IMG/VR virus record: IMGVR_UViG_3300001919_000035
Location: 10,257-74,256 of that record
Length of the DNA: 64,000 nucleotides
Origin: a virus
Taxonomy: Duplodnaviria; Caudoviricetes
Strand: one strand, 5' to 3'
In this document: piece by piece, positions 5,195 to 23,358 of the stretch
Layout of the letters: each line of letters opens with the position of its first letter
Position numbering within the stretch: position 1 is the stretch's first letter
Made by a program: the position numbers and the translations under genes
The notes under the pieces: model-generated
Databases searched by the model: none
Seen by the model: only the letters and a program-made list of their open reading frames with translations
What the model was told of the DNA's origin: nothing

Positions 5195-5267
5195 TCTCTA
5201 TTAGCTCAGTTGAGTAGAGCGTATGATTTGGGTCATAAGGTCACTGGTTCAAGTCCAGTATAGAGAA
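5195..5267 (+). tRNA. tRNA-Pro(TGG)-like with a 6-nt anticodon loop
   Basis: Acceptor TCTCTAT/ATAGAGA, D GCTC/GAGC, anticodon stem TATGA/TCATA with loop TTTGGG, T-arm ACTGG-TTCAAGT-CCAGT; no encoded CCA. Confidence 0.7.
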
Positions 5268-5272
5268 CAAAT

Positions 5273-9018: not shown

Positions 9019-9481
9019 AACTTTTTCTTCTAAATAACAATTCAAAACCACGTTTGCATGTGAATGTAGACGTGGTCATCAGTAAATGACAAACCTGTGG
9101 GGCGTAAATAATCTCATGCGTCTGAGTGGTAAATGTAATTCGGCTTGATGGTGTTAGCACATACATTATCAAAATGTTTTATACACCGCCTTTTAGATGT
9201 GCTAGTGGCATGAGTTTTATGATCGTGCGGACGTAAAAATCAGGTAGATAATAAGAATTGTACTAGCAATACATTTCTGCTGTATCTTTAAACATGTAAT
9301 TAACGCTATAATTACTCTTTTCATTAGATCTCCTCGCTCATTGAGAAAGAGTAATTGTTTTCTCTCAAGGGAGTTGCACTTACGCTACAACGTAAGATAA
9401 ACGAATAGATCAGGCGACCGAAGCCTTATCCAGAATAGTTGTAGATATTCTGGCGTCATCAAACTTTTAAACATTATCAAA

Positions 9482-10047: not shown

Positions 10048-10324
10048 TCCGCCAGTCTAATATTCTTGTTTATAACTCTTAATAATTAAATTATGAGTAA
10101 AAGGTGGTCAACCCCAAGTATGTTAGTAATACATCTAACGCCCTAACCTCAGTAAAAGGTATATGAAGTCATATACTACGAGTAGTGTGTACATTTTATG
10201 TGCAAATGATATATTCACAGGAATATATTAATTAAAAGAAGGGAAGGAGATGCTCTCGAATAAGAAATAGGAATAAGAGAGACATACTTTTATTAGCAAA
10301 ACATTTCAAAATTTAACATTAATA

Positions 10325-11047: not shown

Positions 11048-11449
11048 ATAACTATCTTTTACATTCCATCCTCAGTCTCTAGAAGCAAGAGGAATAAAAA
11101 CGAAGTTTAGTAGTGAAATGAGCATGAATGAACATGCTTACTCAAGACCTATAAGGCAGTAGTAGGAACTATTGTAGACATCACAGTCAAGGATATACAG
11201 ACCCTTAGAGGCAGGTTTAATTCCATATATCCAACTATCAAGGTCTAAGACGAAAGTAATAAGTGCTTTATGCCACCTATTGTTATAGTATCTTATATTT
11301 TAATGCAGGTTTATTGTTTAAGTACGAAGTGTATTACTAATAAATACTTTTAATAATAGATTATTATAAGTAATCAAAAAGGTGTAGGCTGAGAAATTAG
11401 CCTACACTTACTATCATTTTTTCATTTTTAAGTGATTTTATTCACAATA

Positions 11450-11740
11450 TAAGAACTGTATTGTGTCTTACTAGGCTTATTAATCATTGTTAGGACGAGG
11501 GTTCGACTCCCTCCAGCTCCACGCTCATAAGAGCTACAAAGGGCAAAGTAAAACTAGGATTTTTGATCGTGTTAACCGTGCGCCAAGTTTTTAAATTTTA
11601 GAACGGTTAAAAGGGGCTGCTTGGATTTGACTAGCAAAATTCATTAATAAGATAGGTTCATGTGTGTTTAAATGGCAATATTTTTGTCACAGACTATACT
11701 CAACTAGCAGTTGCGTAAAGTCACGTGCTAACTACGAAAG
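11450..11740 (+). ncRNA. ssrA: Circularly permuted two-piece tmRNA gene (outer ends approximate)
   Basis: Acceptor piece GGAC-GAGGG-TTCGACT-CCCTC-CAGCTCC-A (11493-11521) precedes the 5' piece GGGGCTG...GGATTTGAC (11613 onward). G3:U70 pair, P2 pairings TAGCAA/TTGTTA and ATTAATAAG/CTTATTAAT, tag frame 11674-11718 GNIFVTDYTQLAVA*. Confidence 0.9.
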
Positions 11741-11746
11741 TGAGGA

Positions 11747-11801
11747 CTATCTAGTAGAGTAATCGAGTGGAAAGGTGGGTTCGATTCCCACCTAGATAGC
11801 A
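11747..11801 (+). ncRNA. Minimal tRNA-like element (acceptor plus T-arm)
   Basis: CTATCTAG/CTAGATAG stem, T-arm GTGGG-TTCGATT-CCCAC, 20-nt interior without an anticodon arm. Confidence 0.6.
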
Positions 11802-11824
11802 ACATTTTTAAAAATTTATCAAAA

Positions 11825-12163
11825 ATGAATAAGGATGGTTTAACACTAACAATCGAACATTATCGATTGTATGTAATGGAGAACATGCCCGAATCTTGGA
11901 AACGGGCTGCACTGAATCACAATGTACTAGAACAGCTTATTGAAGCTGTAGCTAGGTATTGTCTAGAACATCGCTTAAAAGGCAGTGAATTGTACTATCA
12001 TTTACATGAAAATGAATTGATATGTGCAGCATCTTTTGATAGCGAACCTCAAGGAATAGATTGGTGGATGGACATTAGTTCTGAAGCTAGTATGTTAGAG
12101 AATCATGGTTGTATTAACACGTATGCAGAAGATGAAGAAAACGGCAACACAAATGAAGTATGA
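11825..12163 (+). CDS. Hypothetical protein
   Basis: 112-aa ORF with TTATCAAAA leader. Confidence 0.7.
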   Translation: MNKDGLTLTIEHYRLYVMENMPESWKRAALNHNVLEQLIEAVARYCLEHRLKGSELYYHLHENELICAASFDSEPQGIDWWMDISSEASMLENHGCINTYAEDEENGNTNEV

Positions 12164-14705: not shown

Positions 14706-16172
14706 ATGAGCAAGAACAAAGACAATAAAAAAGGAGCACAAGCCGCTGCTCAGTCTACAAAGAAAGATAATACTGTAAAAGGCAAAGCAGTAGAAAACAA
14801 AGTAAAAGAACAGGAAAAGAAAGTTGCCGCTCAGGAAGAAAAAGTACCTGAAAAGCCGATAGAAGATGCTACAGGTGAATCACCTGCAACTGTACAGGAA
14901 GAAACTCCTGCACCAGCTCCTACTGTTCATAACCCTGCCGAAGCATCAGCAACAGTATTCAAGAATGCTGAATTGCAAGAAACATTAACAGCTATGGCGC
15001 TTACCCCAGAAACCGTTCTGGATGCTAATCATACCGTAGAATTGTTAACAGTTGCAACAAAGCGTTTTGAAGCAAAAGATCCCCGTAATCCAACGGTTAT
15101 TGCTGCAAATGAAATGCTGGATGAATTGACTTGTTATTGTATTGCACTCGCTGGCGTAAATATGTCAGTAAATGGCAAGAAAATCGGTCTTTCTATCCCC
15201 GTTGGTGCTCTTCCATCTTATGTACGGGCTATGGGTTACTTTGGAATTGCACTTCCTGAAGCAAGTGCAGTACCCGATCCTAAGAATCCGGGACAAATGA
15301 TTATTCCGTTTGACGGAGTATCAAAAGAGACAGAAGAAACTATCAAAAAGGAAATCAAATTACACAAAGATGCAAAACCAGCAATGGATGTATCGCTGTG
15401 GAAATCTGATGAAGATGTAAAGAAAGCAATTTCCTACATCCTCAGTGATACACTGAGTAAAGATAATCGGTTCCAGGTTTCTCTGTCAAAGATACGTATG
15501 TACAAAGTGCTGAACGCAGCTAACGATGATGAAAAGAAGATGTGGGAATCTGCGTCTCTTTCAGCAATCTTCGAAACAATGCTTACGTTGTTAGGAGACA
15601 GTAAGTCTACATTACTGAATGCAGTAGGTGGACAGGTTTATTCTGCTGCAGCAACACGTAAAAATCCGATCCTTTCGCATCTGGCATTAAAACGGAATTT
15701 CCCGCAGTGTACAGATAAAGACATTTCCGAAATTGTTCGGATTATTGTCAAGACGAAAGCTGCCTCTATGAATCCGGATCAACCTATTGAGCAGAATATT
15801 GCTTGGTTAGGTTTGAACAACGGAAAGCGAGAAGATTGTCTTCTTATTCCAACAAAATCTACCAGTGAAGATAAAGAAATCATGGGTAGAATTCAGTCCG
15901 CATACAGTGACAAAGTAGGTGTTCCCTCAGAAGAAGGTTACAACCTGAAAGTTACTAATTTCTTAGCAACAATCGTAAATCTGTACAAAACAGATGATTT
16001 CATTACTCAGTACAGTGCAGCTGACTATACTGATTGTGTCAACAAAGCTTTAGAAGCAATTTCCGGAAAGACTGCTCCTAAAGACGATAAGACACTGGAT
16101 CCGAAAGAAACTAAGAAAGAAGAAAAGCCGGCTGACAAAAAGGAAAAGAAGGACGACAAAAACAAGAAATAA
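14706..16172 (+). CDS. Hypothetical protein, 488 aa, with charged low-complexity termini
   Basis: Long ORF with TTATCAAAATG leader. Confidence 0.85.
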   Translation: MSKNKDNKKGAQAAAQSTKKDNTVKGKAVENKVKEQEKKVAAQEEKVPEKPIEDATGESPATVQEETPAPAPTVHNPAEASATVFKNAELQETLTAMALTPETVLDANHTVELLTVATKRFEAKDPRNPTVIAANEMLDELTCYCIALAGVNMSVNGKKIGLSIPVGALPSYVRAMGYFGIALPEASAVPDPKNPGQMIIPFDGVSKETEETIKKEIKLHKDAKPAMDVSLWKSDEDVKKAISYILSDTLSKDNRFQVSLSKIRMYKVLNAANDDEKKMWESASLSAIFETMLTLLGDSKSTLLNAVGGQVYSAAATRKNPILSHLALKRNFPQCTDKDISEIVRIIVKTKAASMNPDQPIEQNIAWLGLNNGKREDCLLIPTKSTSEDKEIMGRIQSAYSDKVGVPSEEGYNLKVTNFLATIVNLYKTDDFITQYSAADYTDCVNKALEAISGKTAPKDDKTLDPKETKKEEKPADKKEKKDDKNKK

Positions 16173-16189
16173 ACTAATCATCCATCAAG

Positions 16190-16582
16190 ATGAGACGTAC
16201 GTCTGATTTTCTTTGGTGTGTAGTGTTTGCATTTATTGCTGTCATAACTACCATCAAATTGAGCGGTCCACAGACTGTTGAGGCTTCAGAGGTTCCGTTA
16301 CCTCTTCCAGAGCTTACTATGCCCAAATTTGTTAATCCTGTAGGTCGTATTGACCTACAGATTGACTTAAATAAAGGCACTGCGAGAATAGAAAGTGATG
16401 CTGATATTGCTACAATTAATACTGTAGTTAATCATCCAGCTCCGAGTGTTAAACCTAAAACAAAAGTAGTTATAAAGAAAGATACAATAACAGAATATCT
16501 GGATAAAGTGGTCATGTTCTCTTTACCTAAAGGTCGTCTTCAGGTACCAGATATTGAATTTCCTAATAGAGTAGTACGATAA
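16190..16582 (+). CDS. Membrane-anchored or exported hypothetical protein
   Basis: N-terminal hydrophobic segment FLWCVVFAFIAVITTI. Confidence 0.7.
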   Translation: MRRTSDFLWCVVFAFIAVITTIKLSGPQTVEASEVPLPLPELTMPKFVNPVGRIDLQIDLNKGTARIESDADIATINTVVNHPAPSVKPKTKVVIKKDTITEYLDKVVMFSLPKGRLQVPDIEFPNRVVR

Positions 16583-16668
16583 TGAGTGAAAATGATAAAT
16601 TAGGATATCTTATATATCTTATGCTGTTAGTATTAGCAGCAGGAACTCTTTACTTACTCTGGTGTTAA
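16582..16668 (+). CDS. 28-aa single-TM peptide
   Basis: TAATG overlap with the previous stop; MSENDKLGYLIYLMLLVLAAGTLYLLWC*. Confidence 0.5.
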   Translation: MSENDKLGYLIYLMLLVLAAGTLYLLWC

Positions 16669-16689
16669 CAATACGCTCTAAAAGAATGG

Positions 16690-18910
16690 CGTCAGGTCAA
16701 ACGAGTATATACCTGTAATAAGATGATATACCGTGGTATTGTAGCTGTACACGTTAAAAGCAATAAGACAGCGTATATTTTATTTCGATAAGTCTGATCA
16801 ACTTATGGTATAATATAGACAAAAGATACAGGATAGGAGAATATGATAACAGCTACCACTGTGATTCAAAAGGTACTATGATAACTTACTATAGAGTTTT
16901 ATCTTTTTACTCTAGAAAAAGTAGTAAGATAGTAGGCAAGCGTGCAATCCTACCTGCAATATATTGAGAACCGATTGGTGAATATATTAGTACAGAAAAG
17001 ACGCGATCTAGCTCAAGAAGAGACGAAGACAAACAATGCATGGAGTAAACCTAAGTAGGAAGATATTAGCAACATCAACTGAAATCTCCATAAGAATCCG
17101 TAGGTACAATCATGTACGGCATCAAATAAGGACGAAAAAGGTTTAACTTATATTATATCCAAAGTAATATAAGGCTGATAAAAAAGAACTGACTAACGTT
17201 CTCGATGGGTCCAAACTATCGTTAAAAATAGCTACTCTAGTGTTCCATACTACAGTTATTACTGCTTTGTATTACAGTAATAAGGATCTAGACAACATGA
17301 CATCTGGCTAAGTCATGGAAGTATGTTTGAAAAGAGTGTTTAACTACCAAGAAATTAATAGACGATAACTGAAAGCTGAGTGGCTATGTCCCATTAATTA
17401 ACTAAAAGAGGTAACGGACTTTTATAAATTAATGACAGGTTATCCGGAGCAGGAGCCAATCCTGTGCTTGAGAGAGCTTATTAAAATGTTCATCTAGCCT
17501 TGCAACCTAGATTAAATAGTTTTAGTAAGGGGGTACTCCAGGTGCTGGGTTAAAGTCTATATAGGAGTGATTACTATGTCTTCTAAGATTCGTTCCAGAG
17601 GATTAAGAAAAGTACGGTATTAAACAAAAGTGACCGAGTTTTGTGTTTGCAATACATTAGTATTGAAGAGTTATGTCACTATAAGTCATGGAAACAAACA
17701 CACGGAAGTAAAAGCGCCGAAAAGACTACTACAAACTATTGAGATATTGTAGCGAAATATAAGAGTACGAATAAATGGAATTCTACCGCCAAAGAAACAA
17801 AGGTGTAGTAAATTTAGTTTAAGCTTTCTTTGATAGATATAACGAAAGTGGGGCTAGGAAATAGTCAATGGGTTAAATTCAAGGCTTACCAACAATAAGT
17901 GCTACTGAACTTACCATGGTTTATCACTGACCCGAGAGTTAACGAGACTCTTAAACAAAAGCGTTAATTAACATGTCTAACTTACGTAGGCCAAAAAGCC
18001 GAATAAATATAATCTGTGGAAGTCCTCGCTAGGGAAACTGACTGCGACCACAGCTTGGCGAATGCGATTGCTTAGTAGTATCAGAGTATAATGCGCAACA
18101 TTATATGTTCGAGAGAAAGCGTCTCATTGAAGCTTATAGACCTTTAAGAGTGAACTGAATAAGGAAACATTACTTATAGACCTGTCATAAGCAAGAGTAA
18201 GTGAGAAAAGGTGAAAGTCCTTAATCTTCAACCAAGTAAAATAAACAAAATCCTAGTCATGGTTACGTTGGCATCCCTGTACTTAGTAATAAGTATTATA
18301 TGGCGTAAGAGGTAGGTATTAGTGAATAACTATATGAAACCTATAAGTTGTTAAAAGCAACAAATACAACGATGGAAATTCCGTTTGTAACCTTGCAGTT
18401 GGTAACGTTTCTGTATAAAACGACCGGACATAACTACTTGCCCGATAGACAGTATAAAATCATTAGTAAAGATCTAACGTGATTTAAGTAGGTCAATCTG
18501 CTTAATATCTACTATATTAGTAAGAGTTGCAAACTACGTTCTCTTTATTAGTTAGTCCTGAGAAACCAGGAAACCTAGGTGATTTATACGGATCTTCTAT
18601 AATAGAGATTATAGAATATGGAATACAACATTAAACCAGTACTATGCCCATCGATGGGTCTCATTAGCCCTGGTCACAATGCGGTAGATAGTTCCAAAAT
18701 GAAGAGGAAGTTAATAATAGTTATCTAGTAAACTTAAGATCCTGTCTCGATCGAAAAGGAGTCTATATAGTCAGTAGACATAATAGCAAGAACAATAGAT
18801 ATTATTAAAACAATCTTAATATAGCAAGTTTAACGCTTACTTCTGAGCTTTGCATTGAATTGCATACGACCGTGGTTTTAACCTACCTGATATAAGATGA
18901 TGGTAAATCG
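16690..18910 (+). ncRNA. Candidate very large structured ncRNA, ~2.2 kb (strand and ends uncertain)
   Basis: No ORF of 60 aa or more on either strand in the track; dense helices and GNRA-type loops; putative long-range kissing loop; near-direct repeat at both ends. Confidence 0.55.
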
Positions 18911-18985
18911 TACAGAAACAAGTATAGAAGGAGCATTATTTTTTATTTTATTAATTTTATTAACAATTAAAACTTATCAAAAGAA

Positions 18986-19543
18986 ATGGCAACAATTAAA
19001 TATGACAGAAAGGTAGCATCACAGCTTGGTGCATTGTTAGGTATGAATCTTATTATGATCGAACGGAAAAATGTTGATCCAGATTACTCTAACAAAGAAA
19101 GAGATGGTAAACAGCGGTTGGCTAACGAAATTTATATATACGGTATCCGGCGCATACGAATTAAACAAGCTAATTTGGTTGACCTTGAAGAAGGTAAACA
19201 GATTGTACAGTTCAATGAAGATCCGAAGTTGCAGCTGGAATTAGCTGATGCTAAAGATATCAGTGATATCATTAAGAAACCGACTGTACAGGAAATCATT
19301 ACAGCTATCTCAAGTAATGCTGTAGGTCTGCCTAAATATTTTGTCGATGATGTGACATGTACTGAATTGGTTTGTTCATTCAACCAACGCTCTCGGAAAG
19401 AGATCAGTAACATGATGGAGTACCTGTCTAAGCAGGCTTCTTGTCTGGATGATGCAAATCGTATCATGCAGGATGCATGTAGAGCAGAAATGGCTACACT
19501 TGGCCAGTCTGTAGATTTTAAACCCATTAACTTAGGAGACTAA
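18986..19543 (+). CDS. Hypothetical protein
   Basis: 185-aa ORF with TTATCAAAA leader. Confidence 0.8.
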   Translation: MATIKYDRKVASQLGALLGMNLIMIERKNVDPDYSNKERDGKQRLANEIYIYGIRRIRIKQANLVDLEEGKQIVQFNEDPKLQLELADAKDISDIIKKPTVQEIITAISSNAVGLPKYFVDDVTCTELVCSFNQRSRKEISNMMEYLSKQASCLDDANRIMQDACRAEMATLGQSVDFKPINLGD

Positions 19544-22277: not shown

Positions 22278-22349
22278 GTGTGTATAATTCAACTGGAAGA
22301 AATGATTCTTACGAGACTCTATATACAGGTTCGAGTCCTGTTACACACA
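22278..22349 (+). tRNA. tRNA-Arg(ACG)-like with a 6-nt anticodon loop
   Basis: Acceptor GTGTGTA/TACACAC plus A, D-loop with GGA (A20), stem GATTC/GACTC (one mismatch) with loop TTACGA, T-arm ACAGG-TTCGAGT-CCTGT. Confidence 0.6.
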
Positions 22350-22401
22350 CAAATCCGTTACATAAACATTTTACAAAATTATCAAAATTAAAAGTAAAGT
22401 C

Positions 22402-23284: not shown

Positions 23285-23356
23285 AGCGGGATGGCGCAAT
23301 GGCAGCGCGTCGGTTTCACGAGCCGGAGGTTGATAGTTCGAATCTGTCTCCCGCAA
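23285..23356 (+). tRNA. Initiator (fMet)-type tRNA body with CAC anticodon
   Basis: A1xA72 mismatch, GCGGGA/TCCCGC acceptor, stem TCGGT/GCCGG, loop TTCACGA, AGGTT variable loop, A73; colinear with bacterial tRNA-fMet. Confidence 0.8.
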
Positions 23357-23358
23357 CG

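Follow-up and report, generated by a model that had tools for sequence, protein, structure and literature searches.

The locus described here is a conserved, base-paired non-coding RNA element of about 2.25 kb, predicted from comparative sequence analysis, that matches no known RNA family. It lies in a window of 64,000 nt (the whole stretch of DNA that was analysed), whose source is a delta-group human-gut crAss-like phage with cr10_1, cr50_1, cr55_1 and cr1_1 (Suoliviridae/Boorivirinae) as its nearest named relatives. The element consists of a structured body of ~1.5–1.6 kb shared between clades and a fast-evolving 3′ part of ~650 nt. It was delimited as follows:

~16670/16683 to ~18920, + strand: whole conserved non-coding element (~2.25 kb), from blastn and conservation boundaries; no ORF, flat substitution phases, identity above that of the flanking genes.

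Between 16583 and 18985 (2,403 nt), both strands lack ORFs of 60 aa or longer whether read with table 11, TAG=Q or TGA=W, and a TAA=Q reading yielded small scattered frames only. The claim of the original prediction that ~2.3 kb lacks such an ORF is thus borne out under three codes. This is the largest ORF-free stretch of the window, the runner-up measuring 777 nt. The ends of the element were set where conservation rises (~16670) and falls (~18920), very close to the coordinates first proposed (16690–18910). The first 87 nt of the desert (16583–16669, + strand) are occupied by an ORF for a hydrophobic, TM-like peptide of 27–30 aa, which overlaps the stop codon of the upstream gene and ends 24 nt before the 5′ pseudoknot. 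It is kept as a peptide in Boorivirinae (...LGYLIYLMLLVLAAGTLYLLWC in the window, ...LAFVGLIIFFIMCLFFAWCIT in cr10_1) and is missing from the relatives' annotations.

The two flanking genes (130 aa, 16190–16582, upstream; 185 aa, 18986–19543, downstream; both + strand) are complete and have full-length homologs. Around the gap, the gene order in all five Suoliviridae subfamilies is a sigma-factor-like gene, a 460–570-aa protein, a 130–155-aa protein, the gap, then 185–210-aa and 170–190-aa proteins. All neighbouring genes are on the + strand, in the same direction as the element, which adjoins the replication module, with an AAA+/DnaC-like ATPase gene downstream. PHROGs and Pfam gave no family for the 129-, 488-, 130-, 185-, 170- and 177-aa proteins near the element, and an Atlas search of a neighbour protein returned a viral hypothetical cluster and nothing else. 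AF2 models of the 488-aa (pLDDT 63.7) and 185-aa (pLDDT 80.8) proteins had no fold match in the PDB (best E 0.17 and 0.64, respectively). The 488-aa protein (14706–16172, + strand), which is always upstream, is modelled with a disordered Lys-rich N-terminus of ~114 residues, an all-helical body and a basic C-terminal tail. The four always-adjacent proteins (488, 130, 185 and 170 aa) were found only in crAss-like contigs. The surroundings offer no clue to the element's function.

The window was aligned with two relatives over 5 kb for identity and codon-phase counts. Nucleotide identity was 70–95% in the element as compared with 57–69% in the flanking genes; 50–62% of the substitutions in these genes fell at one codon position, whereas their distribution was flat in the element (33–45%). 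Because identity is higher and the phases are flat, the nucleotide sequence itself is under purifying selection, stronger than that acting on the neighbouring genes. Neither an open frame with a reassigned stop nor a codon-position bias, as expected of a protein-coding region read in an alternative code, was detected in the element. These alignments show that it behaves as non-coding DNA selected at the nucleotide level and not as decayed coding DNA.

Synteny, one of the checks suggested at the outset, was found in related crAss-like genomes: an unannotated gap of 1,849–2,520 nt lies at the same site in 5 of 5 Suoliviridae subfamilies (Boori-, Louti-, Uncou-, Beari- and Oafivirinae), the Oafivirinae member being a macaque phage. 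A degenerate core motif run against IMG/VR recovered dozens more copies, giving 40 sequences non-redundant at 98% identity. The core covariance model matched subfamilies outside its training set (Oafivirinae, 2e-8; Uncouvirinae, 6e-7 and 1e-5), with one match per genome, always on the + strand. When the same model was run against crAss001, cr108_1, cr116_1, DAC15 (Steigviridae), cr127_1 (Crevaviridae) and crAss002 (Intestiviridae), the best E-value was 0.19, and the Suoliviridae positive controls of that search gave 1.4e-8 and 4.5e-7. A scan of bacterial and archaeal genomes with the core motif returned, among the at least 120 matches listed, none that was homologous, all being due to chance. 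The element appears to be specific to the crAss-like family Suoliviridae. In cr113_1 (L059, 3438–3875) and cr109_1 (L060, 3440–3877), the annotation places a 145-aa ORF on the minus strand within the variable 3′ portion of the element, which may be an artefact of gene calling or an insertion confined to this lineage.

All column pairs were scanned without bias for runs of at least four conserved canonical pairs. Helices with at least three Watson-Crick compensatory pairs numbered 14 in Boorivirinae and 15 in Loutivirinae, versus 0–2 in column-shuffled alignments; nearly all are local hairpins. In a held-out test, the structure was derived from clade A alone (which includes the window) and scored on clade B: 59% of cells were paired versus 38–41% with slid partners, with 601 compensatory cells versus ~350. 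By segment, support was clear from 16683 to ~18180 (52–79% versus ~40%) and nil at 18183–18932, and predicted pairs spanning more than 100 nt scored barely above controls. Just one long-range helix, spanning ~175 nt, has good support, and no helix joins the 5′, central and 3′ parts; conservation along the element is patchy, with poorly conserved linkers. In the 24 covariation-supported pairs of the core domain, G·U/U·G combinations occur in 57 cells versus 2 for A·C/C·A, and at one core position 31 of 37 sequences have G·U. Since these G·U cells would be mismatches on the minus strand, + is the functional strand; alifold energies favour this strand by ~7% only, too little for a strand call on their own. 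Together, these tests show a predicted conserved base-paired structure extending over at least ~1.5 kb (16683 to ~18180, plus the core to 18265). It contains numerous covarying hairpins, an H-type pseudoknot with support and a second, probable one, a long-range helix, and invariant loop and junction motifs.

The 5′ domain (16683–16990) was tested on 14 Boorivirinae sequences. Paired cells amounted to 96.7%, versus 83.8% in shuffled alignments and 32–48% with slid partners, and compensatory cells to 90, versus 26 and 3–20 respectively; the observed values were attained in 0 of 500 shuffles. The domain contains the following features:

16693..16731, + strand: 5′ H-type pseudoknot, stem 1 16693–97/16711–15 and stem 2 16705–09/16727–31 (95.7% and 98.6% paired; 2 and 4 pairs changed on both sides).
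16744..16772, + strand: hairpin GCUGU/ACAGC (100% paired in 14 sequences; 2 compensatory pairs).
16774–83/16808–17, + strand: 10-bp hairpin (7 of 10 pairs changed on both sides).
16833..16879, + strand: helix 16833–36/16876–79 around hairpin 16844–52/16859–68 (5′-domain alignment test).
16885..16957, + strand: hairpins 16885–91/16922–28 and 16932–35/16953–57 (4 and 2–3 compensatory pairs).

Both loops of the 5′ pseudoknot are conserved (CAAACGA and GUARUAAGA). An RNAalifold helix closing the domain (~16690–95 with 16975–80) was left out; its changes are all one-sided, and it is incompatible with the pseudoknot stem, for which support is better. The element is bracketed by an 18-nt direct repeat (89% identity, 16710–16727 and 18884–18901); the repeat is present in clade A and missing from the alignment in cr50_1, cr55_1 and cr1_1, and is thus not family-wide.

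Four features were retained in the central part:

17203..17221, + strand: hairpin with the conserved loop GUCCAAA (3 Watson-Crick compensatory pairs in the unbiased scan).
17256..17317, + strand: hairpins 17256–64/17275–83 and 17296–301/17312–17 (G-C to A-U compensations, with G·U intermediates within clade A).
17450..17464, + strand: hairpin CAGGA-GCCAA-UCCUG (conserved across subfamilies).
17629..17702, + strand: probable pseudoknot, helix 17629–34/17675–80 crossing helix 17642–49/17695–702 (pairing records of both helices).

The two crossing helices probably form a second pseudoknot. The first is paired at 6 of 6 positions in 16 sequences, in four sequence versions. The second keeps lineage-specific complementarity amid register shifts between sequences; when it was scored per sequence, the scrambled control did not discriminate, one strand being G/U-rich. 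An exact 12-nt repeat (TAAGTCATGGAA) is found at 17309–17320 and 17682–17693, each copy just 3′ of a covarying helix, and clade B also has its YUGRAAAC portion; the repeat may serve as a recurrent motif for tertiary contacts or protein binding.

For the core domain, the test alignment comprised 39 sequences belonging to four subfamilies. Of the 24 pairs that RNAalifold predicted, 20 had both partners changed, and one hairpin was then added. Paired cells reached 94.4% (71.6% shuffled, 35–47% slid) and compensatory cells 227 (72 shuffled, 6–40 slid), values attained by none of the 500 shuffles. The core and the 3′ region are made up as follows:

18007..18265, + strand: core domain, conserved in all five subfamilies (formal pairing test and covariance model).
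18014–19/18048–53, + strand: core helix CTGTGG/CCACAG (compensatory changes).
18054–58/18232–36, + strand: core long-range helix (5 of 5 pairs covary; span ~175 nt).
18086–93/18099–106, + strand: core hairpin with a YGCAA loop (core pairing test).
18208–11/18219–22, + strand: core hairpin with the invariant loop UGRAARU (core pairing test).
18270..18860, + strand: fast-diverging 3′ region (held-out test equal to controls; structure supported within clade A only).
18863..18920, + strand: 3′ terminal block (90–95% identity within clade A; holds the 3′ copy of the 18-nt bracketing repeat).

The long-range helix closes a multi-helix junction with three hairpins, two bearing the YGCAA and UGRAARU loops and one variable. 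Clade A has a short GAAA-type loop where the other clades have a peripheral hairpin with a GUUGUAA loop; swaps of peripheral hairpins are typical of large RNAs. The variable core hairpin (~18145–18180) bears an insertion of ~36 nt, in part a duplicate of TTATAGACCT, which L015, cr50_1 and cr55_1 do not have. In the 3′ ~650 nt, clade-A alifold gave compensatory hairpins at 18457–18660, no structure is conserved beyond clade A, and clades A and B cease to align.

We take the invariant motif GGUGRAARUCC to recall conserved regions of RNase P, and its 7-nt loop UGRAARU presumably fits the T-loop signature U-G-N-R-A. The hallmark of RNase P is the P4 helix, formed by CR-I and CR-V. An RNase P RNA was rejected: the GGUGAAAGUCC motif forms a simple local hairpin (18208–11/18219–22) and not a P4-type helix, and no RNase P model matched.

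These results bear on the individual contacts that had been read from the single sequence. Among the five helices listed in the original prediction, four (17256–64/17275–83, 17296–301/17312–17, 17642–49/17695–702 and 18014–19/18048–53) show compensatory changes in relatives. The fifth, 16741–48/16849–56, does not hold: it is 76% paired only and is lost in the cr10_1 clade without compensation, the actual partner of strand 16741–48 being local (16768–72, 100% paired in 14 sequences). The description of the region as helix-dense is likewise not upheld, with a mean MFE z-score in 200-nt windows of −0.44 inside versus −1.81 in the flanking genes (rough shuffle); visual helix density is not evidence in itself, since the folding energies of single sequences do not fall below those of shuffled ones. 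A kissing loop of ~1.57 kb had also been proposed (17190–95/18768–73), and it fails on three counts: only 43% of cells pair; its 3′ hairpin falls outside the conserved sequence and half of the subfamily lacks it, even though these members retain the 5′ loop; and the cr10_1 clade alters the 5′ loop from TGACTA to CGAATA with no matching change. A given 6-mer is expected by chance an estimated ~0.5 times in 2.2 kb. The conserved loop CUGACUAAC (~17189–17197) may make another contact. The broader claim, a very large structured ncRNA or a tight RNA cluster, stands on nucleotide-level purifying selection, family-wide synteny and strand-specific covariation.

The Rfam search that had been suggested was performed with Rfam 15 cmscan on the window at gathering scores, on 16300–19200 at E up to 10 and on five other subfamily loci at E up to 1; no family matches inside the element. 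The covariance models of GOLLD, ROOL, OLE, raiA and HEARO did not match it. An intron identity was rejected, there being no intron core-model match and both flanking ORFs being complete. The element is described neither in the analysis of Yutin 2021 (PMC7886860) nor in the Crassvirales review (PMC10136315). Two surveys of structured-RNA candidates (PMC10690425, PMC8040213) list phage motifs of 30–151 nt and do not mention crAss phages; single hairpins of the element may be present anonymously in their catalogues. No description was found in the other full-text literature, a coverage outside which most subscription journals lie. A paper on UG/Abi reverse transcriptases (PMC9226505) has no bearing on the locus.

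Other RNAs are encoded in the window, all on the + strand. A Hatchet self-cleaving ribozyme (9075–9245, 72.9 bits) and a RAGATH-9 RNA (10104–10292, 81.6 bits) score above the Rfam gathering score, each in its own ORF-free stretch. ARAGORN called a permuted tmRNA (11432–11853, tag peptide ANYESEDYLVE) within the 777-nt ORF-free stretch, and no Rfam tmRNA model reached gathering score on the window. Three tRNA genes are located at 5195–5268, 22278–22350 and 23285–23357: one is a tRNA-Val(CAC), and two have odd anticodon loops to which ARAGORN assigned no anticodon.

The element is probably a single + strand structured RNA of ~2.2 kb, transcribed with early/middle genes and acting as a folded particle like GOLLD and ROOL. 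Transcription would proceed together with the co-directional early/middle genes on both sides, and the product would most likely be one RNA of ~2.2 kb with a conserved 5′/central body and a variable 3′ part. The compact pseudoknot at the 5′ edge may mark where this RNA starts or shield that end. By analogy, it would work as a folded particle (scaffold, cage or decoy, possibly with proteins) and not by coding or simple antisense pairing. We advance more tentatively that the whole ~2.2-kb block is one molecule folding into a new RNA machine (a cage or scaffold, a ribozyme, or T-loop-like hairpins binding tRNA-like RNAs) that is needed for infection. The last of these options is suggested because odd tRNAs and a tmRNA-like gene are found in the same genome.

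Several smaller, mutually independent structured RNAs in a tandem cluster (5′ pseudoknot, central and 18007–18265 core modules, for instance), separately transcribed or processed, form the main rival reading, which seems to us less likely. Such a cluster would agree with the almost exclusively local covarying helices, the lack of covariation linking domains and the fact that the sole well-supported long-range helix closes a domain of ~230 nt, as well as with patchy conservation, poorly conserved linkers, an independently evolving 3′ third and the presence of other small RNAs (Hatchet and RAGATH-9) in the same genome. However, order, spacing and total size are preserved in all five subfamilies, the whole block is more conserved than the neighbour genes, and no module matches a known small RNA family. 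A promoter and terminator search at the element identified none, and no internal promoter- or terminator-like site stands out.

This lack of a recognisable promoter or terminator of its own, together with the position between co-directional genes and a start 24 nt after the stop codon of the small peptide ORF, would also suit a giant cis-acting structured UTR in a polycistronic mRNA, influencing the 185-aa gene downstream, for instance its stability, processing or translation. This alternative is improbable: the element is better conserved than the genes it would regulate, and a 2.2-kb leader containing dozens of conserved helices along with pseudoknots and invariant loops would, to our knowledge, far exceed any known from bacteria or phages. 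A DNA-level element, either a replication origin or a packaging site, is more improbable still. The adjoining replication module, with its AAA+/DnaC-like ATPase gene, speaks for it, but no iterons or tandem repeats were found in the element, cumulative GC skew climbs monotonically across it without inflection, and strand-specific pairing (57 G·U versus 2 A·C) is not what duplex DNA or symmetric cruciforms would show. A protein gene that has decayed, been recoded or been riddled with introns, an outcome already considered with the original prediction, is hardly credible, barring an unknown code: delta-group phages are reported to use stop-codon reassignment (TAG=Gln, TGA=Trp) and to carry group I introns (PMC7886860), but none of TAG=Q, TGA=W and TAA=Q opens a reading frame, substitutions have no three-base periodicity, no intron family matches and the flanking ORFs are intact.

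Suoliviridae (delta group) are reported to be the largest crAss-like group in the human gut (PMC7886860). The conserved RNA locus represents ~2% of every Suoliviridae genome and is left blank by annotations; its covariance-supported domains are markers for annotating it in gut viromes. The core is missing from the cultured phages crAss001, crAss002 and DAC15, which may explain why the locus escaped transcriptomic notice. GOLLD is the largest among the three ornate RNAs of a cryo-EM study (10.1101/2024.12.08.627333). If transcribed as a single RNA, the element would exceed GOLLD more than twofold in size and would be a clear candidate for cryo-EM and for the discovery of ribozymes or RNPs. As one molecule, it would be the largest structured ncRNA known in a phage or bacterium, rRNA and introns aside. 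Should the RNA-machine reading be true, one of the commonest phage families of the human gut would depend on it for infection.

The single structured RNA that we favour can be compared with four known systems. Like group I and group II introns, which are common in delta-group phages (PMC7886860), it is structured on the kilobase scale, with GNRA-like loops and long-range helices; unlike them, it has no Rfam match at E up to 10, interrupts no host gene and contains no intron ORF. OLE RNA, a ribonucleoprotein RNA of ~600 nt from Firmicutes, is also large, with highly conserved nucleotides among covarying helices and constant neighbour genes. The element differs from OLE in that it has no Rfam match, is phage-encoded and not cellular, and has neighbours (488, 130, 185 and 170 aa) without known family or fold. 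With ROOL (~580 nt, phage/prophage, octameric nanocage), it shares the character of a phage-borne ornate RNA with multiple pseudoknots and without a known protein partner; it differs by the lack of an Rfam match, a length about four times greater and the absence of support for the proposed intramolecular kissing loop. GOLLD is a phage/prophage "giant ornate" RNA of more than 800 nt that forms a 14-mer nanocage, and both GOLLD and ROOL are phage-encoded, often near tRNA genes, cage-forming and composed of a conserved and a variable half (10.1101/2024.12.08.627333). Their homo-oligomeric cages are joined by intermolecular kissing loops. In comparison with GOLLD, the element does not match the Rfam model in sequence or structure, is ~2.5 times longer and is confined to one crAss-like family; its conserved 5′/central part and variable 3′ part are the reverse of the arrangement in GOLLD. 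In kind, the element is phage-encoded, spans several hundred nt or more and has a covariation-supported structure with pseudoknots. It thereby resembles GOLLD in its phage origin, its very large size, its many covarying helices and pseudoknots and its division into one conserved and one poorly conserved part, and tRNA genes lie a few kb from it (22278 and 23285 in the window, and in relatives too).
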